Source of the DNA: Synechococcus sp.
GTDB taxonomy: Bacteria; Cyanobacteriota; Cyanobacteriia; Thermostichales; PCC-7336
Direction: 5' to 3'
DNA length: 64,000 nt
Assembly (NCBI GenBank): GCA_051439425.1
Contig: JBFRWD010000075.1
Location: 1-64,000, forward strand
Each line of letters begins with the position of its first letter. The first letter of the stretch is position 1. The notes under the pieces are model-generated. The model was not told the DNA's origin. It did no database searches and saw only the letters and a list, made by a program, of their open reading frames with translations. A program made the translations under genes and the position numbers. Positions 1,397 to 29,896 of the stretch are shown here, piece after piece.

Positions 1397-2946
1397 CGGT
1401 TATCGATTTGCGCCCGTTGCAATTGACCGGAATAGTCCACGTACACGGTCTTCCAGTCCGAAAACACATCCAGGGCGGTACTTCCGGCTTCCCGGTGACC
1501 GTTGCCGGTCTGCTTCACCCCTCCAAACGGCAGGTGGACTTCCGCGCCGATAGTGGGGCCATTGATGTAGGTGATACCGGCTTCGATATCTCGGATGGCC
1601 TGAAAGGCACGGCTGACATCGCGGGTGTAAATCGAGGAGGAGAGACCGTAGGGAGTACGGTTAAGTACTGCGATCGCTTCTTCTAACGAATTCACTTCTA
1701 GGACAGCTAAAACCGGCCCGAAAATTTCTTCTTGGGCTACTCTCATGTCGGGCGTCACCCCATCCAAAATCGTGGGCTGGAAAAAGAAGCCGTGCTGTAA
1801 TTCCCCTTCCACTGCTATGGCGCCACCAATCGCGACCCGTGCCCCCTCCTGTCGGGCAATGTCGAGCTACCGGACGACGCGATCTCGCTGAGTTGCGTTT
1901 ATCAGGGGGCCAATATCCGTATTGGAGTCGAGGCCGGAGCCCAGCCGCAGCGATCGAACCTGGTCGATCAGCTTGCTCAGAAACTCAGCCTTAACGTCGC
2001 GATGCAGAATCAAGCGACTGGTGGCCGTGCAGCGTTGCCCCGTCGTTCCAAACGCCCCCCATAAAGCCCCATCCAGAGCCACGTCAATATCTGCATCCTC
2101 CATCACGATCTGGGCATTTTTTCCGCCCATTTCCAGACACAGCCGCTTATGGGTGCGGCCACAGATAGCCCCCACGTCCGCCCCCGTTTGCGACGATCCG
2201 GTGAACGACACCAGGTCTACATCGGGATGCTCTGTCAGAGCCCGTCCGACTTCCTCGCCGCTACCGTGAACCAAATTGACAACCCCAGCCGGTAGCCCTG
2301 CCGCCTCAAAAATCTGCGTCAGCATGGTGGCGCAGGCAGGAGTATCGGTGGCCGGTTTGAAGACAATAGTATTACCGCATACCAGCGCGGGTAATGACTT
2401 CCAGCAGGGAATGGCAATGGGGAAATTCCAAGGGGTAATGAGGGCGCAGACCCCAACCGGCACCCGCACCGTCATGGCAAACTTATTGCCCAATTCCGAT
2501 GGGGTCGTTTGACCGAACAACCGCCGTCCTTCTCCGGCGTAGTAAAAGGCACAATCAATGCCCTCTTGCACATCCCCTCTCGTTTCTTCCAGCGGCTTGC
2601 CCATCTCCCGCGTCATCATATGGGCCAGTTCCTCTTTGCGCTCTCGCAGCAATTCCCCCACGCGCAGGACGTATTCCGCCCTCTCCGGAGCGGGAACCAG
2701 TCGCCAGTGACGATAGGCCTGGCGGGCAACTGCCACAGCAGCATCCACATCAGCACTTCCGGAGCGAGGGGCGGTAGCCACCACCTCCCTCCAGTCAGCC
2801 GGGTTGCGACAGTCCGAAGTCGCTTCCGAAACGGCCGCAACCCAGCGACCGTCTATGAAATTGAGGCACTGCATTACAGCCGATGGTATTGCAGCCGTTG
2901 GTATTGCAGGCATAGTTGGGCCGGCCTCCAAACAACAAAACACCAC
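1393..2946 (-). pseudogene. NAD(P)-dependent aldehyde dehydrogenase interrupted by a single in-frame TAG at 1867-1869
   Basis: ORFs 1867-2946 and 1393-1812 are in the same frame; reading through gives ...RDRVVR*LDIARQEGARVAIGG...; motifs ITPWNFP, SFTGS, LEMGGKN, GQRCT, EEIFGP, PFGG are all intact. Confidence 0.85.
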
Positions 2947-3216
2947 CCTTTGTGAGTCCGCTCCACTAGCGCATCCGGGCAGAATGCAACCCAGTCAGAC
3001 GCGGACTCCCAAAAACCGCGTATTCGGAAAAGCAACACCGGGGAGCTGTGCCACTAGTACTCTGTCAGCAGAGATGTGACAGGCAAGGACTCTCCCTCAG
3101 GCTTGCGGCAAAGTATTCGTGCCTCGCTCGCACCTCCTATAGCGAGCCTGACAAACGACTAGAGCCTCGCTCTCCGACGCCGTTACGCAGGTTTATCGAG
3201 AGTGGGGAAACGCAAC

Positions 3217-3306
3217 TCATACGAGCGCAATAATAATTGCACCCAAAATCACGAAGCCAACAATTGCTCCAAGAACTTCGACTGCTTCTATTCGGGTATC
3301 GTTCAT
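3217..3306 (-). CDS. 29-aa single-TM small protein (MNDTRIEAVEVLGAIVGFVILGAIIIALV)
   Basis: ATG at 3306 with AAGGAG upstream, TGA at 3217-3219, one continuous hydrophobic stretch. Confidence 0.5.
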   Translation of the reverse strand: MNDTRIEAVEVLGAIVGFVILGAIIIALV

Positions 3307-26359: not shown

Positions 26360-27541
26360 CTATCCCTTCACGCACACCACCTGTTTGAGGGTGGCGACAA
26401 CTTCTACCAAGTCGGTTTGGCTGGCCATCACCTCCTCAATTGGTTTGTAAGCACCGGGAATTTCATCCAGAATCCCTTTGTCTTTGCGGCATTCGACACC
26501 GGCGGTTTGCTCGATTAGGTCATCGAGTGTGTAGGCTTTCTTTGCTTTGGTGCGGGACATGCGGCGTCCGGCTCCGTGGCTGCAAGAACAGTAACTGGCG
26601 TGGTTACCTTTGCCTTTAACGATGTAGGACTTGGCGCCCATCGAGCCGGGGATGATGCCGTAGTCGGTGGTGCGGGCGCGGACGGCTCCCTTGCGGGTGA
26701 CGTATACGTCTTCGCCGAAGTGGTTTTCTTGCTCGGCGTAGTTGTGGTGGCAGTTGACGGCCAGCAGGGGCTTGGTGGGTTTGCCTCCGGCAAGATGCTT
26801 CTCAACGATGTGCTTGAAGCGGGCCATCATGACGTCGCGGTTGAAGCGGGCGTAGTCTTGCGCCCATTGCAGGTCGTGCCAGTAGGCAGCGAACTCGGGG
26901 GTGCCTTTGACGAAGTGGGCCAGGTCGGGATCGGGTAGGGTTTCGTCAGCTAGTTGAGCGAGCCCTTTTGCCGTTTTGATGTGGTTTTGGGCCAGTTTGT
27001 TGCCGATGTTGCGGGAGCCAGAGTGCAGCATCAGCCAGACGGTGTTGTCGGTGTCGAGGCAGAGCTCGATGAAGTGGTTGCCGCCGCCAAGGGAGCCCAT
27101 TTGGTGGAGAGATTTGGATTCTAGTTTTTGGACACCTTTGTGCAGGTTTTTGAACGAGCGCCAGCCGTTCCAGTTGTAGGCGTCTTTTTCGACGTCCTTG
27201 TTTTGGTTGAATCCGGTGGGGATAGCGGCTTCGATGTCTAGGCGAATTTTCTTGAGTTTGCCCTCTAGCATGTCGCCCGTAAATGGGGTTTTGATGGCGC
27301 ACATCCCGCAGCCAATATCCACGCCGACAGCAGCGGGGATGATGGAATCTTTGGTGGCGATGACGGAACCGACTAGGGCTCCTTTGCCCAGGTGGACGTC
27401 GGGCATGAGGGCGACGTGTTTGTAGACGAAGGGGAGGTTGGCGACGTTTTTGGCCATCCGGTATTCGTCGGAGCTAAGCTCGTGGTTTGCCCAAGAGTAA
27501 ACGGGCTTATCGGTAGGTAGATTTAGATCTTTCTGTGACAT
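26360..27541 (-). CDS. rtcB: RtcB RNA ligase (3'-phosphate/5'-OH)
   Basis: MPDVHLGKG, VGVDIGCGM, GSLGGGNHFIE, LHSGSRN, CHHNY, RKGA, IPGSMG, SCSHGAGR, DEIPGAYK, VKG; start at ATG 27541. Confidence 0.96.
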   Translation of the reverse strand: MSQKDLNLPTDKPVYSWANHELSSDEYRMAKNVANLPFVYKHVALMPDVHLGKGALVGSVIATKDSIIPAAVGVDIGCGMCAIKTPFTGDMLEGKLKKIRLDIEAAIPTGFNQNKDVEKDAYNWNGWRSFKNLHKGVQKLESKSLHQMGSLGGGNHFIELCLDTDNTVWLMLHSGSRNIGNKLAQNHIKTAKGLAQLADETLPDPDLAHFVKGTPEFAAYWHDLQWAQDYARFNRDVMMARFKHIVEKHLAGGKPTKPLLAVNCHHNYAEQENHFGEDVYVTRKGAVRARTTDYGIIPGSMGAKSYIVKGKGNHASYCSCSHGAGRRMSRTKAKKAYTLDDLIEQTAGVECRKDKGILDEIPGAYKPIEEVMASQTDLVEVVATLKQVVCVKG

Positions 27542-27712
27542 GGTTATTTCTCTCTTTCTTCTTCTTGGTCGGTGTTTTGGGTCGAATTTGTAGCGAGCAG
27601 CTACGACAATTGATGGAATTTGTTGCTGGTGGCAGGCAAGTAAGAATTGCTTTTTGGCAAAAGTGTAGATAAGCCTCATGCTCACATAGCAGAGGAGGCT
27701 TGAGGAGCATTC

Positions 27713-29314
27713 CTACAAATCTCCGTTGGCAATCATCTGAATGGCCCGAGGGGCACCGGGGTCAAACCCAGCGAAATCCCACGACAACGGATCTTGAGGA
27801 TCGACCAAAGAGATGCGGTACGGAGCCAGCGAAACGTAAACCGCTTTCGCATCGGGATTCACCTTACGGCGATACTCTGCCAACGCCTGTGCGGGATGTC
27901 GCTTGCCTGCCCACGACTCGCAATCTGTCCAGAAGCAAAACACATCCGTCCAGACCCGCTTGGCGATCGCCCAGTCATACGCCACCGACGCATCCGTCCC
28001 CCCAAACGTTTGTCGCGTCGTCTTCTGCAACGCAGACGAGAAACAATCCCGAGCCGTAATCCCCAAGTCTTTGAAGGTAGTCGAGAATCCGCGAATAACA
28101 TAGTTTTTCTCGGCTTTCGCCGTTACCAACGCCATCGTTGTCGCAATCTCGCTACAAGACAGATTCATAGACCCGCCAGAGTAACAAGACATAGACCCCG
28201 AAACATCGACCGCATGCAAGAACGTCTTGCCCGTAGGCTTCACGGTCTCAAACGAACGCTCCAGAGCTTTCTCTAAAATGTCGCAAATGCGAGGAATCGG
28301 TTCCCACGTCTTCTTGCTGCGACCGGATCGACCCCCAGATCGATAAGTCTTCAGCGCCTTCAACACGTCAATCGGATGAATCCGTCCCTTGCGCAAGCGA
28401 TCGCGACTGGTCAACACCTTCGCCACCCGCCTCAAGTTCTTAGACTTGTGAACTTGCAACACCCCAATTTCAGTCAAAGACCCCAAGTTGCGCAACAGCG
28501 CCCCAATCGGCATGTCTTCAAACAGTAACTGCCAAGCGTTGGCATCCATCTTGGCGATCGGAGCCACCATCTCGTGGGTCAATCGCCCCTCGGAGATCGC
28601 CATGCAGGTACTGTCAGGATTGCGCTTCAACCACTCGTACCACCACACCTGAGCAATCGGTCCATTGGGCACCCGATCGGGCAATGTCTCCCACCCATTT
28701 ACCACCCAGTCGTAGAGAGCCTGGTGCCCTTCTGTCTCAGGCTTAACGTGGAATAAACGCAAGGCATCGCGATTGCTAAACCCATGCCGTTGTCGGTACT
28801 TCAACAACTGATAAGTCAACCACTTCACATCAGGATTCGACAACCACCCCTTACCGCATTCCCGCACCACCTTACCCAAACCACGCACGGACTTGGTGTA
28901 GTTCAACCACTCGTAAAAATGACTGCCGGTGCGCACCACCTTAGGGAAAATCTCCATAAATGCCTGTTTTGCAGCATGGGAATCCCCCATAGACAGCAAC
29001 ACCAAGGCGTAGATGGGGGCGCTGTTGTTGATGGAACGACCGTCGCTAGCCGAGACAATCTCGCTCGCGGTGCGGGCTGGGTCTTTGTCCACACAAGCCA
29101 AGACCGTATCGGTAAAGTCACCGGTTAAATCGTGTTTGTCGGCGTAATAGGTGCTTTGCGCCGTGCCGATCAGCAAGCAGCGGGTCAGCATGGTCCAGGG
29201 GCCGGGGTCAAACATGTAACCGCCAGACCGACCACGTACCATCTCCTGTTCACGTCCGGGAATCGGTTGATGTTGAGGAGTTTTAGTAGTCGAGGTGAAA
29301 AATTTATATGACAT
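27713..29314 (-). CDS. rsr: Ro60/TROVE-domain RNA-binding protein with C-terminal vWA domain
   Basis: SGGYMF, LLIGT...TYY, VRTGSH, KYRQRHG...RDALRLFH, MPIGALLRNLG, RIHP, AVDVSGSM (MIDAS), GGTD, WTD, GFD; start at ATG 29314 with GGAG upstream. Confidence 0.93.
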   Translation of the reverse strand: MSYKFFTSTTKTPQHQPIPGREQEMVRGRSGGYMFDPGPWTMLTRCLLIGTAQSTYYADKHDLTGDFTDTVLACVDKDPARTASEIVSASDGRSINNSAPIYALVLLSMGDSHAAKQAFMEIFPKVVRTGSHFYEWLNYTKSVRGLGKVVRECGKGWLSNPDVKWLTYQLLKYRQRHGFSNRDALRLFHVKPETEGHQALYDWVVNGWETLPDRVPNGPIAQVWWYEWLKRNPDSTCMAISEGRLTHEMVAPIAKMDANAWQLLFEDMPIGALLRNLGSLTEIGVLQVHKSKNLRRVAKVLTSRDRLRKGRIHPIDVLKALKTYRSGGRSGRSKKTWEPIPRICDILEKALERSFETVKPTGKTFLHAVDVSGSMSCYSGGSMNLSCSEIATTMALVTAKAEKNYVIRGFSTTFKDLGITARDCFSSALQKTTRQTFGGTDASVAYDWAIAKRVWTDVFCFWTDCESWAGKRHPAQALAEYRRKVNPDAKAVYVSLAPYRISLVDPQDPLSWDFAGFDPGAPRAIQMIANGDL

Positions 29315-29368
29315 CTTTTCTTCTCCGTCCCTGATGGGATAAACGAACGGTGTCCCCAAATGGGGAAG

Positions 29369-29493
29369 GGAGACGGACGGGAATCGAACCCGTATCTCGG
29401 CGGACAAAAGGGGGGATCGTTAACAGCGATAACCTTGAGTCCTTCAGCCCTTGCGGGCAATCAGTGCGCTCTACCGTTTGAGCTACCGACTCC
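29369..29493 (-). ncRNA. Y-RNA-like tRNA mimic, unit D (module in permuted order)
   Basis: Acceptor GGAGTCGG/CCGTCTCC, D arm GCTCAAACGGTAGAGC, T arm ACGGG-TTCGATT-CCCGT; anticodon arm replaced by GCCC-GCAA-GGGC-TGAA-GGACTCAAGG-TTATCG...CCTTTTGTCC. Confidence 0.8.
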
Positions 29494-29515
29494 ATATAGG
29501 TTTTGGGAAAAACAT

Positions 29516-29620
29516 TGGTGGACGGGAAGAGATTCGAACTCCTGACCGATAACCCTCGCTCGACGACCTATGAGGTAAAGAGTGAACGAGGGGTTGCTCT
29601 ACCATTTGAGCTACCCGCCC
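29516..29620 (-). ncRNA. Y-RNA-like tRNA mimic, unit C (encoded CCA; G3:U70, A73)
   Basis: GGGCGGG-TA-GCTCAAATGGTAGAGC-A...CCCTCGTTC-ACTCTTT-ACCT-CAT-AGGT-CGTC-GAGCGAGGG-TTATCGGTC-AGGAG-TTCGAAT-CTCTT-CCCGTCC-A-CCA. Confidence 0.88.
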
Positions 29621-29653
29621 ATATTGAGTTTTGAGAATGAGAGGGGATTTGTT

Positions 29654-29756
29654 CGCGAAGCGTCTCCGTCAGGAGATACCCCGCCTTCCAGCTACCGATA
29701 ACCTTCATCCGGCGTCCCTTTCGGGTCAGTGGTGAATAAAGAGGAAGACTCGCCCG
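29654..29756 (-). ncRNA. Y-RNA-like unit B (shared module, no canonical D or T arm)
   Basis: CTTCC...CTTTATTC-ACCACTG-ACCC-GAAA-GGGA-CGCC-GGATGAAG-GTTATCG...GGAAG, then hairpin TCTCC-TGAC-GGAGA; ends approximate. Confidence 0.6.
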
Positions 29757-29765
29757 TATTGAGGT

Positions 29766-29896
29766 TGTAGTGGAGGAGGACTCGAACCTCCAGATGACGC
29801 AGTTCCCTACGATAACCCTCACTCTTCGACCCAATGGGTAAGAAATTGAATAAGGTAACTCGACTGCCGCCTTTACCAATTTGGCCACCCACTACA
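29766..29896 (-). ncRNA. Y-RNA-like tRNA mimic, unit A
   Basis: Acceptor TGTAGTGGG/TCCACTACA, D arm GCCAAATTGGTAAAGGC, stem GCAGT/ACTGC enclosing CCTTATTC-AATTTCTT-ACCC-ATT-GGGT-CGAA-GAGTGAGG-GTTATCG, T arm GGAGG-TTCGAGT-CCTCC. Confidence 0.85.

Follow-up and report, generated by a model that had tools for sequence, protein, structure and literature searches.

The DNA analysed here is a 64,000-nt stretch from Synechococcus sp. (the window). It harbors on its minus strand rsr, encoding a Ro60 orthologue, the RNA ligase gene rtcB and, directly upstream of both, an array of four RNA units, A to D, that lie 54-580 nt before the rsr ATG (Table 1). The window Rsr shares 60-94% identity with 39 cyanobacterial loci. 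The start codon of rtcB is uncertain, since the Pfam domain starts at residue 78 of the ORF. A tblastn search with the window RtcB found no RtcB within the 39 related loci, while the Rsr control gave 42 hits; an rsr-rtcB operon is therefore not general among these loci. A 462-aa protein encoded downstream had no tblastn match in the same 39 loci either. The linkage of rsr and rtcB is thus either particular to this lineage or hidden in truncated close relatives. A motif scan around the array returned no sigma-70-like promoter sites and five terminator-like sites versus 3.4 expected, none of which was convincing or meaningfully placed.

Table 1. Features of the array and the adjoining genes, with the evidence for each
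Feature	Positions	Strand	Evidence
Unit A: tRNA-shaped Y RNA, type 1	29767..29895	minus	Sequence; cloverleaf minimum-energy fold; model R1, 75.7 bits over 29767-29894
Unit B: decayed unit, no D arm	29634..29755	minus	Orthologue alignment; module fold; no R1 match at E<=0.01
Unit C: tRNA-shaped Y RNA, type 1, 102 nt	29516..29620	minus	Rfam tRNA, 42.9 bits; R1, 88.7 bits; fold z = -3.28
Unit D: tRNA-shaped Y RNA, type 2	29369..29492	minus	Rfam tRNA, 39.3 bits; R1, 52.4 bits; fold; type-2 alignment
rsr leader element	29320..29340	minus	Alignment of 8 leaders; motif counts in rsr leaders
rsr (Ro60 orthologue), 533 aa from ATG at 29314	27713..29314	minus	Pfam vWA_Ro60, 1.8e-38; TROVE, 6.5e-16
rtcB, RNA ligase gene, directly downstream of rsr	26360..27685	minus	Pfam RtcB, 2e-124

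Bacterial Y RNAs have been described as circularly permuted tRNA mimics that lack a free CCA end, and we know of no partner for their tRNA-like domain. The preliminary description of this DNA reported four copies of GGTTATCG on the minus strand upstream of rsr. They were found at 29427, 29547, 29696 and 29810; the window as a whole contains seven copies versus 1.5 expected, a count reached in 0 of 100 shuffles. A Ro60-type helix and GGUUAUCG recur in every unit. In A, B and C a common module runs from a pyrimidine strand and a loop through a short capping hairpin and a bulge of 4 nt to a purine strand, after which comes GGUUAUCG. The helix is CCUUAUUC/GAGUGAGG in A (cap ACCC-AUU-GGGU), CUUUAUUC/GGAUGAAG in B (cap ACCC-GAAA-GGGA) and CCUCGUUC/GAGCGAGG in C (cap ACCU-CAU-AGGU). 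The three 8-bp helices previously quoted as compensatory are all fully paired, and the difference between A and C is a double compensatory change. The module had been ascribed to all four units, which is correct for A, B and C but not for D. In unit D, the D arm is followed by the hairpin GCCC-GCAA-GGGC, UGAA and the purine strand GGACUCAAGG, which pairs with a pyrimidine strand located 3' of it, around the hairpin AUCG-CUGUUAA-CGAU; no pyrimidine strand is present 5' of the module hairpin. An alignment and consensus structure of units of this kind (type 2) also contain compensatory changes.

The proposal that A, C and D are tRNA-shaped with open acceptor stems is borne out by the cloverleaf fold of A and by the Rfam tRNA scores of C and D, which exceed the gathering threshold of 29 bits with 44 and 67 nt, respectively, in the anticodon region. 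Unit A has an acceptor stem of 8 bp, in which G-1 (29895) pairs with C73 (29767), a D arm and a 5-bp anticodon-like stem. As previously noted, it also contains a Ro60-type motif, GGUCGAAG (GUCGAAG), which leads into GGUUAUCG and the T arm; CCA is not encoded. In unit C the helix sits where the anticodon arm would be, and the acceptor stem has G1-C72, G3·U70 and A73 followed by an encoded CCA (29516-29518). Unit D has a T arm and six of seven acceptor pairs plus G-1:C73, again with no CCA. ARAGORN called no tRNAs within the window, and an anticodon hairpin with a 5-bp stem and 7-nt loop is absent in A and C. Unit B had been placed outside the tRNA shape. It has an acceptor 5' strand (GGGCGAG) and an outer stem (CUUCC/GGAAG), an insertion of ~25 nt that splits the T loop, a mutated 3' acceptor strand (6/7 pairs) and no CCA. 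Its orthologues at two related loci (L020:2796-2892 and L002:2947-3045) lack the D arm as well, yet keep the acceptor stem, an intact T arm and A-CCA, which contradicts that placement. The Ro60-type consensus GNCGAAN0-1G is exact only in A within the window, with the variants GACGCCG in B, GUCGUCG in C and GCUGAAG in D, and is exact in 30 of 90 units across the family. The minimum-energy folds of A and C and the module fold of B recover the Ro60-type helices. The fold z-scores of A (-2.66) and D (-2.29), like that of C in Table 1, are modest; the fold of B is not significant (z = 0.21 and 0.56), and the minimum-energy fold of D is not a cloverleaf. Support for the structure is comparative rather than thermodynamic.

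The comparison set consisted of the window and 39 cyanobacterial rsr loci, searched with a covariance model of the units (R1); matches of at least 90 nt are referred to as long. R1 was run within one phylum and on 36 viral loci. It gave 113 matches in the window and the 39 loci, 96 of them long and all on the rsr strand. Of the 33 loci that extend 500 nt or more upstream, 31 contain at least one long unit, the exceptions being L018 (tRNAs only) and L039 (a 21-bit match only). In the genome of the window the only long matches are A, C and D, and the other 29 matches are 71-89 nt. The number of long matches per array ranges from 1 to 5 and is three to five in 23 of the 33 sources with a match (the window and 32 loci). 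Arrays of three to five units are the norm and the array is not new, contrary to the earlier suggestion that its novelty lay in having four members.

Conservation of the structure extends across this family. In the alignment fitted to R1, which also took in 17 short matches, true tRNAs for the most part, and one or more false long ones, such as L022:3138-3312, a pair of tRNAs, 93.5% of cells pair versus 74.5% when shuffled, 32 of 33 pairs vary on both sides, and the covariation score is 0.477 versus 0.180 for shuffled and at most 0.090 for slid alignments. In the acceptor stem of the 96 long matches 642 of 657 cells are paired (97.7%), with 4-6 pair types per position. Compensatory changes keep six helices over several cyanobacterial orders and phages, and U8, G10, A14, G19, A21 and the T-loop GUUC.A..C are invariant in 27 units. 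The Rfam tRNA model also detects nine units in 8 related loci at 35.8-47.2 bits. The module was initially assigned to the anticodon arm. This holds for C-type units, where it replaces the arm; most units retain an anticodon-like hairpin and have the module between that hairpin and the D arm. The module has two topologies, of which unit D represents the second; at least 44 units are type 1 and at least 17 type 2, counts from a crude classifier that left 35 of 96 units unassigned owing to bulges. Some units carry insertions, and some are distant from the usual position: L007:5122-5228 is downstream of rsr, and units in L013 and L017 are up to 2-3 kb away.

The units are homologous to YrlA. YrlA of Salmonella Typhimurium and Mycobacterium smegmatis (RF02553) lies, like the units, beside rsr on the same strand, and has in common with them a GNCGAA-type strand leading into GGUUAYC, a V hairpin (AUCGC, 7-nt loop, GCGGG; Streptosporangium seed row), and T and D arms with tRNA-invariant nucleotides. 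The connectivity of these parts differs. In YrlA the T arm precedes the D arm, the acceptor stem is closed by a loop and the free ends are at the Ro60 stem, whereas the units have the D arm first, an open acceptor stem and a loop that closes the Ro60 stem. Cyanobacterial YrlAs were listed in T-before-D order by Chen et al. 2014 (PMC4201824), and their acceptor stem is described as "longer", with the ends marked undetermined, in the accessible text of that paper and of Wang et al. 2018 (10.1101/312249). The YrlA-II seed of Chen et al. 2014 has rows for Calothrix PCC 7507, Stanieria and Gloeocapsa. These cyanobacterial rows begin with GG(U/C)CGA..GAGGGUUAUCG and continue with the T arm, A/G-CCA and a spacer, the D arm and a pyrimidine strand. 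The YrlA of Lyngbya aestuarii BL J in the same paper (AUZM01000001.1, 108660-108828) corresponds to L030 2974-3142, and runs from the cap loop of the unit at 2918-3042 to the cap loop of the unit at 3087-3229. The seed alignment and the matching coordinates confirm the earlier claim of Y-RNA-type, YrlA-homologous RNAs adjoining rsr. They also indicate that the YrlA published for cyanobacteria, long acceptor stem included, comes from reading this DNA between successive cap loops. The loci and DNA are thus identical and the register differs, a two-unit span as opposed to self-contained units; single-unit loci, type-2 units and units without a D arm fall outside the model of Chen et al. 2014.

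Which register is correct was addressed by locating the D and T arms independently of the acceptor stem. Within units, the acceptor strands pair at 7/7 positions in 40 of 45 units, at 6/7 in 3 and at 3/7 in 2, the last two reflecting a 1-nt shift; between neighbouring units 7/7 pairing occurs in 7 of 28 cases. In the alignment, 824 of 840 acceptor cells pair within units (98.1%) versus 271 of 420 across units (64.5%), and the cross-unit reading is inferior in 49 of 60 neighbour pairs, in agreement with the true-tRNA topology originally proposed. The Ro60-type and cap helices, paired at 91.4% and 99.7% within units and at 85.0% and 95.3% across them, are too conserved to separate the two registers. 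A single long match stands at six loci, in five of which it is a full R1 unit, making a T-before-D RNA impossible at those five. N73-CCA is encoded at the exact 3' end of 26 of 96 units and in 0 of 37 tRNA genes of the window's genome, and at Chamaesiphon loci true tRNA genes are interleaved with the units. An open-ended RNA in true tRNA order, rather than a permuted one, best fits these YrlA-type RNAs, and we consider this reading probable.

The principal alternative is the canonical permuted YrlA, which would start at the purine strand GNCGAAG and proceed through the T arm, a long loop-closed acceptor stem and the next D arm to end with the next pyrimidine strand. The second model of Chen et al. 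2014 uses three such cyanobacterial sequences and gives hits at E = 1e-5 to 1e-30. Full-length alignments to RF02553 occur only across unit borders, as in L016, at subthreshold scores of 37.1 and 31.4 bits. Some arrays could form a long hairpin, given the 7 of 28 neighbouring acceptor strands that pair fully, and the Ro60-type and cap helices are nearly as well paired across units. Nevertheless, the 7/7 cases are neighbours with identical acceptor sequence, and acceptor pairing across units is otherwise far poorer than within them. The window offers no complete permuted RNA: the D arm of B is missing and its T arm is disrupted, and D has no pyrimidine strand on the 5' side. The ends of a permuted RNA would fall within loops of 3-5 nt, the six loci with one long match offer no second unit, and CCA directly follows N73 in more than a quarter of the units. 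None of 151 genomes of the phylum gave an RF02553 match at the cut-off. The YrlA search suggested in the preliminary description gave only a partial match of 20.7 bits (gathering 69), which begins in unit C at the T arm and extends to the D arm of unit D. R1 matched A, C and D. A permuted YrlA is accordingly improbable here. According to the preliminary description, permuted or tRNA-order YrlA had already been noted in some cyanobacteria; Chen et al. 2014 and the accessible text of Wang et al. 2018 give the T-before-D order instead. In the literature covered, which did not extend to two reviews of bacterial Y RNAs (Annual Review, 2020; Microbiology Spectrum, 2018), no paper describes tRNA-order Y RNAs. 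Cyanobacterial YrlA homologues beside rsr were already known; the tRNA-order topology is probably new.

Three other systems resemble the units in part. According to the accessible text of the 2014 paper, a Y RNA opened by RNase P has, like the units, an open 7-bp acceptor stem and a 3' end that receives CCA; its two fragments, of 82 and 65 nt, stay associated through the Ro60 stem. In the units, by contrast, the cap loop makes a single molecule of the two halves, and the CCA is often part of the gene. tmRNA likewise mimics tRNA, with an acceptor stem that is open, G3·U70, A73 and CCA, and its gene order too differs between lineages, some having the one-piece and others the circularly permuted two-piece form. 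Unlike tmRNA, the units have no mRNA-like frame and no pseudoknots, and they have a Ro60-type helix that tmRNA lacks. Rfam tmRNA matches score 7.7-23.1 bits versus a gathering threshold of 47; these weak matches sit on the acceptor and T parts of the units. Identity with tmRNA was rejected on the score of 7.7 bits in the window and because a tag frame does not fit in 102-128 nt. The circularly permuted tRNA genes of red algae and an archaeon, mentioned in the accessible text of Wang et al. 2018, share with the units the use of tRNA parts in two orders, but they decode and pass through a circular intermediate, whereas nothing suggests circularisation or decoding for the units.

The leader of rsr contains a further copy of part of the module. 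At 6-27 nt ahead of the rsr ATG, the hairpin UCCC-AUCA-GGGA followed by CGGAG reproduces the Y-module cap hairpin with its bulge, and it overlaps with the ribosome-binding site. The motif is present in 20 of 32 rsr leaders versus 243 of 3000 control windows; the fold of the element alone is not significant. A glutamine riboswitch match at 29311-29347 (Rfam 20.8 bits, gathering 35) is better read as this hairpin copy. It is possible to regard the whole array as a cis-acting leader of the rsr mRNA, a tRNA-mimicking 5' UTR that sets rsr expression, for example through binding of Rsr or of a factor that recognises tRNA. The distance from the last unit to the rsr ATG is 54 nt, a half-module covers the ribosome-binding site in the majority of leaders, and no promoter-like site separates the array from rsr. 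This explanation has even less to recommend it than a permuted RNA, as units also occur up to 2-3 kb away (L013, L017), downstream of rsr (L007:5122-5228 and the phage record G152), or ~58 kb off in a phage tRNA array, and the encoded CCA and the interleaved tRNAs point to excision. The distant copies are in a 224-kb jumbo-phage record, in which two units lie within a tRNA array ~58 kb from the phage Ro60 gene. As a positive control for canonical YrlA, Rfam at the gathering threshold found only tRNAs in 20 of 36 motif-bearing viral loci, and 29 viral loci had no strong R1 match. A 2021 overview of jumbo phages mentions a TROVE protein "with a tRNA-like partner".

The units could also be intron-like tRNA genes, from which the module would be excised and the halves joined by RtcB to yield decoding tRNAs. 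A Chamaesiphon unit matches the adjacent 72-nt tRNA except for a 53-nt module that separates the D arm from the anticodon stem, U is at position 2 in 27 of 28 seven-nt loops of the retained hairpin, CUNNNAA is present in 17 of the 28, and rtcB follows rsr in the window. However, the module is the best-conserved part of the units and has the YrlA Ro60 motif. The loop triplet differs among orthologues (UCC, GUC and GUU in L002, L020 and L023), with 16 triplets in 28 loops; a strict 4-bp hairpin is present in only 35 of 94 units and C-like units have none; and RtcB was not detected in the 39 related loci. No tRNA-splicing endonuclease is known from bacteria. Intron-like genes are thus very unlikely. 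Decaying tRNA-gene duplicates or repeats without function are no more credible, for although unit B is visibly damaged, some units have insertions and unit number varies from 1 to 5, compensatory changes hold six helices across orders and phages, GGUUAUCG and the module are conserved, and in the window's genome the units are confined to the rsr locus.

Under the favored tRNA order, a complete unit comprises D and T arms, an acceptor stem that is open and 7 or 8 bp long and, between the D arm and the variable region, the predicted YrlA Ro60-binding helix. The purine strand of this helix starts with GNCG(A/N)(A/N)G and leads into GGUUAUCG, and a loop of 3-5 nt closes the helix at the place of the 5' and 3' ends of canonical YrlA. 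The array is presumably transcribed as a precursor, possibly together with rsr. RNase P may cut each 5' end, and trimming or CCA addition would form each 3' end, to give products of ~100-130 nt. Such tRNA-like excision from a precursor is the most economical reading of the arrays. By homology of the motif, Rsr would bind the module helix, and the tRNA-like body, with its elbow and acceptor end, may show the complex to some tRNA-binding partner.

G3·U70 together with A73 is the alanine identity set. The third acceptor pair is G·U in 16 of the 26 CCA units, including C of the window, and all 16 have G1-C72 and A73; the same G·U is found in 3 of 70 units without CCA (Fisher p = 5e-9, a value inflated by the relatedness of the units and by the use of CCA in choosing between the 7- and 8-bp registers). 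The wobble pair is kept while neighbouring pairs change compensatorily, and elsewhere in the window's genome G3·U70 occurs only in tRNA-Ala. This subset, which comprises C and the intact orthologues of B, could conceivably be substrates of alanyl-tRNA synthetase, although we regard this as rather doubtful. If so, Ro60 would be coupled to a charged, CCA-ended tRNA mimic, resembling tmRNA, instead of a passive scaffold.

Finally, if the whole phylum and some phages use the tRNA order, the "much longer acceptor stems" of cyanobacterial YrlA would be a reading-frame artefact. The RNAs would then enter normal tRNA maturation, and aminoacylation and contact with translation factors would become testable options. 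The model in which YrlA arose from a dimeric tRNA transcript, cited in the accessible text of Wang et al. 2018, would gain living, un-permuted examples. Neither RF02553 nor tRNA finders label these genes correctly, which affects their annotation. The same parts would be joined in three ways, as canonical YrlA, type 1 and type 2, and a comparison of the three would reveal which contacts are needed for function.

Units A to D, the four tandem Y-RNA-like units upstream of rsr (the Ro60 gene), are organized around a repeated motif. GGTTATCG, which a preliminary description placed four times in the array, occurs there at 29427, 29547, 29696 and 29810; the whole window holds seven copies against 1.5 expected, a number reached by 0/100 shuffles. 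Units A, B and C share a module of pyrimidine strand, loop, 4-bp hairpin, 4-nt bulge and purine strand leading to GGUUAUCG. The compensatory stem changes also claimed are real, in that the 8-bp helices of A, B and C are all fully paired with compensated differences. The Rfam tRNA model gives 42.9 bits for C and 39.3 bits for D (gathering score 29), the two carrying 44 and 67 additional nucleotides, respectively, and tRNA is the Rfam label that these units receive, when they receive any. ARAGORN detected no tRNA in the window. The best match of the Rfam model for YrlA, the known bacterial Y RNA, reaches 20.7 bits against a gathering score of 69 and spans the border between two units, with the T arm of C at one end and the D arm of D at the other. 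Folding-energy z scores are modest for A (-2.7), C (-3.3) and D (-2.3), and not significant for B. Unit B is a form without a D arm, whose orthologues in L020 and L002, two related loci, comprise acceptor stem, module, T arm and A-CCA; compared with these, the copy in the window has a T-loop insertion and a damaged 3' strand. At the same point of the T loop, 22 nt are inserted in a unit of Lyngbya aestuarii unrelated to B (L030:3183-3205), and the two insertions are alike in their 3' part (GCUUCGC.AA).

Features of the rsr locus and its upstream array
Feature	Position	Strand	Description
GGDEF sensor gene	33113-30084	minus	followed by a 770-nt gap holding units A-D
Unit A	29895-29767	minus	acceptor stem 8 bp
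Insertion in unit B	29651-29675	minus	~25 nt, in the T loop
Unit C	29620-29519	minus	acceptor stem 7 bp, A73, CCA encoded
Unit D	29492-29369	minus	acceptor pairs 6/7 plus G-1:C73
rsr leader element	29320-29340	minus	21 nt at the ribosome-binding site
rsr	ATG at 29314	minus	Pfam vWA_Ro60 1.8e-38, TROVE 6.5e-16
rtcB	26360-27685	minus	directly after rsr; Pfam RtcB 2e-124
462-aa protein gene		minus	after rtcB; sole Pfam match AAA_16, sub-threshold

Related arrays are common upstream of cyanobacterial rsr. Among 39 cyanobacterial loci retrieved by Rsr protein, 33 have upstream sequence, and 26 of these have GGTTATCG at most 1.5 kb upstream of rsr. A MAFFT alignment of 27 units, chosen by a simple arm-and-stem search, revealed a conserved plan: acceptor stem, U8, D arm and short A-rich linker; pyrimidine strand (AUCCUUGUUC), internal loop and cap hairpin GCC-loop-GGC; CGAAG and a purine strand with GGGUUAUCG at its end; and a small hairpin (loop of 7 nt), followed by AGGUC, the T arm, the 3' strand of the acceptor stem and N73. 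From this alignment RNAalifold predicts a cloverleaf plus the module helix; the alignment, with a structure set by hand, was also the source of covariance model R1. R1 has 113 matches in the window and the 39 loci, every one on the rsr strand. Seventeen are short and mostly true tRNAs; 96 are at least 90 nt long, one of them (L022:3138-3312) being two adjacent tRNAs and a few low scorers being doubtful. At least one long unit is present in 31 of the 33 loci having at least 500 nt upstream of rsr. Across the window and 32 loci, one long match is found in six sources, two in four, three in 13, four in seven and five in three. The four-member array, proposed earlier as a possible novelty, is thus not one, since rows of Y RNAs are known and 23/33 sources have three to five long matches. 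In the organism's own genome (assembly 96% complete, 1.1% contaminated), the only long R1 matches are A, C and D, the other 29 being 71-89 nt; in whole genomes sampled evenly from the phylum, 12/150 others reach E <= 1e-13, with matches of 118-153 nt. Outside the window, the own genome also has two tmRNA genes (ARAGORN) with tags ANKIVAFSRKPAAVAVA and ANNIVAFSRKPAAVAVA, one residue apart. Three loci have R1 matches just downstream of rsr: L007:5122-5228, which bears a GGUUAUCG-type anchor, and L025:5151-5259 and L006:5158-5245, which both finish with a run of U and are possibly terminator-like hairpins. One locus, L023, bears the label of a Sphingobacterium MAG, yet its Rsr shares 73% identity with that of the window and its array is cyanobacterial in kind; misbinning of this contig is probable.

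That Y RNAs lie next to rsr, mimic tRNAs and come in rows is already known, and cyanobacterial members were catalogued in 2014. In their account of cyanobacterial YrlAs, Chen et al. (2014, PMC4201824) report that few were found in a first pass and that some have a 'longer acceptor stem', and for these reasons used a second model including cyanobacterial sequences. The cyanobacterial rows of their seed alignment (supplementary text 2), from Calothrix PCC 7507, Stanieria and Gloeocapsa, start with GG(U/C)CGA...GAGGGUUAUCG and the T arm, continue with 7-8 bases, a discriminator, (C/U)CA and a spacer of up to ~100 nt, and end with the D arm and the pyrimidine strand; three acceptor-stem base pairs only are marked. 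Their Table S1 lists the YrlA of Lyngbya aestuarii BL J as AUZM01000001.1, 108660-108828. This RNA corresponds to L030 2974-3142 of the same record, with its start in the cap loop of one unit (2918-3042) and its end in that of another (3087-3229); the published Lyngbya RNA is therefore a circular permutation of the units that straddles two of them. A later preprint, in its remarks on that stem, likewise describes it for certain cyanobacteria as 'predicted to be much longer' (Wang et al. 2018, 10.1101/312249).

Since such RNAs had been described, the central question is whether each unit is read in tRNA order or the RNA spans two neighbours, as published. In one test, D and T arms were located around GGUUAUCG-like anchors without use of the acceptor stem, and both were present at 45/101. 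Acceptor pairing within these 45 units is 7/7 in 40, 6/7 in three and 3/7 in two (L004, L005), the last two reaching 7/7 once shifted by 1 nt. The 3' strand pairs 7/7 with the 5' strand of the next unit in only 7/28 neighbour pairs, all with the same acceptor sequence; for random acceptor pairs across different loci the figure is 459/4826. With the model alignment, acceptor pairing is 824/840 within units versus 271/420 across them, the cross-unit pairing being poorer in 49/60 neighbour pairs, and the true-tRNA topology assigned to the units in the preliminary description is supported. The module helix (91.4% within, 85.0% across) and the cap helix (99.7% and 95.3%) are too conserved to separate the registers. 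An RNA with T arm before D arm is impossible in the six loci with a single long match, and no complete canonical YrlA can be assembled from the units of the window. CCA directly follows the discriminator in 26/96 units, and is encoded in 0/37 tRNA genes of the own genome; genuine tRNA genes (Asp, Met/Ile, Gln, Glu, Lys, Asn) are interspersed among the units of Chamaesiphon loci. The encoded CCA and these tRNA genes are further signs of tRNA-like handling.

The predicted structure is well conserved. Paired cells amount to 93.5% over all R1 matches versus 74.5% when shuffled, changes on both sides occur in 32/33 pairs, and the covariation score is 0.477 versus 0.180 shuffled and at most 0.090 with the partner slid, all from a model-fitted alignment that leans towards the model. 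On the same footing, pairing over the 96 long matches is 98.7% in the T stem, 97.7% in the acceptor stem (642/657 cells, 4-6 pair types per position), 93.3% in the D stem, 91.3% in the module helix, 87.3% in the cap hairpin and 82.8% in the small hairpin. By computation, the units form one RNA family whose structure is conserved and whose parts follow the tRNA order; the family is linked to rsr and homologous to YrlA.

The module occurs in two layouts. In type 1 (A, C and, by a crude rule, at least 44/96 units) the cap hairpin connects a 5' pyrimidine strand to a 3' purine strand, so that the terminal stem of YrlA is here closed by a loop. Type 2, represented by unit D and aligned for 21 units, keeps the hairpin and bulge, and its purine strand pairs with a downstream pyrimidine strand around a small AUCG-loop-CGAU hairpin. 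This pairing is supported by compensatory changes at columns 56:97 (AU in 13 units, GC in five), 57:96 (UA in 13, AU in seven) and 62:91 (GC in 16, AU in five). With canonical YrlA, types 1 and 2 thus make three ways in which the same parts are joined. Many type-2 units (for example L014:2170-2291, L017:185-307 and L019:894-1017) have the T loop UGCAAYU, not UUCGAAU, and a D loop without the usual GG, which may reflect covariation of elbow contacts.

A Chamaesiphon unit aligned with a neighbouring 72-nt tRNA amounts to that tRNA plus a 53-nt module between D arm and anticodon stem; the small hairpin (V in YrlA) matches the anticodon stem-loop. In L010:595-827, L012:2735-2968 and L014:2782-3015, the acceptor stem of the 72-nt tRNA is the same as that of the adjoining unit. 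Two of these loci give this tRNA the anticodon GAU and the third gives it CAU, which is odd for a housekeeping tRNA. The small hairpin is strictly 4 bp in 35/94 units; 28 of their loops are of 7 nt, with U at position 2 in 27 and the sequence CUNNNAA in 17. Sixteen different loop triplets occur, and orthologues differ. Judged from these sequences, the loop keeps the shape of an anticodon loop and not its codon meaning.

Phages carry such units as well. The conserved motif retrieved 36 loci from IMG/VR, seven of which contain 14 full-length R1 matches (72.9-93.5 bits); two pairs among the seven resemble copies of each other. The tRNA-order units are in L077:1426-1686 (phage record G151), L057, L062, L064/L084 and L087. 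A Ro60 homologue (32-42% identity) is encoded in four of the five phage records searched, with units just upstream of its gene in G154 and G155 and just downstream in G152. In G151 (224 kb; 96% complete by CheckV), two A73-CCA units lie within an array of 12 tRNAs in 3 kb, ~58 kb from the Ro60 gene. A unit inside a tRNA array would fit tRNA-type maturation, and anything else is hard to reconcile with it. A literature search found no paper on Y RNAs in un-permuted order, on the pair of module layouts, on an encoded CCA combined with the G3·U70 pattern or on phage copies in tRNA arrays.

The rsr leader element copies the module's cap hairpin and bulge, UCCC-AUCA-GGGA-CGGAG here and UUGCCC-NNNN-GGGC-UGAAGGAGG in many other loci. 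In the 45 nt before rsr compared across L002-L036, the motif is present in 20/32 leaders versus 243/3000 control windows. The element may be an operator through which Rsr autoregulates its own translation. A weak Rfam glutamine-riboswitch match coincides with it. The window has rtcB, but none of the 39 related loci encodes an RtcB. A TROVE-domain gene and an RtcB gene are listed among those most induced in a cyanobacterium in co-culture (2024, PMC11423583).

The third acceptor pair from the end is G·U in 16/26 CCA units (7- or 8-bp form), unit C included, all 16 also having G1-C72 and A73; the same G·U occurs in only 3/70 units without CCA, an association whose statistics are inflated by unit kinship and by register choice. 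Elsewhere in the own genome, G3·U70 is confined to tRNA-Ala. G3·U70 with G1-C72 and A73 is the alanine identity set, used by tmRNA too, and its presence makes the 16 units candidates for charging by AlaRS. Such charging of the CCA/G·U units, C among them, is conceivable but unlikely.

Two observations weigh against the pathway proposed here: a sequence scan around the array revealed no recognisable promoter, and only 30/90 units have the Ro60 motif in its exact form. In that pathway, the array would give a precursor transcript that RNase P would cut at the acceptor 5' end of every unit. Chen et al. (2014, PMC4201824), where they treat processing, present M. smegmatis YrlA as a proven substrate of RNase P and of the enzyme that adds CCA. 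The 3' ends would arise by trimming to the encoded CCA or by CCA addition. Rsr would bind the GNCG..G helix, a binding shown for Yrn1 and YrlA elsewhere, and the tRNA-like body may recruit a tRNA-binding partner.
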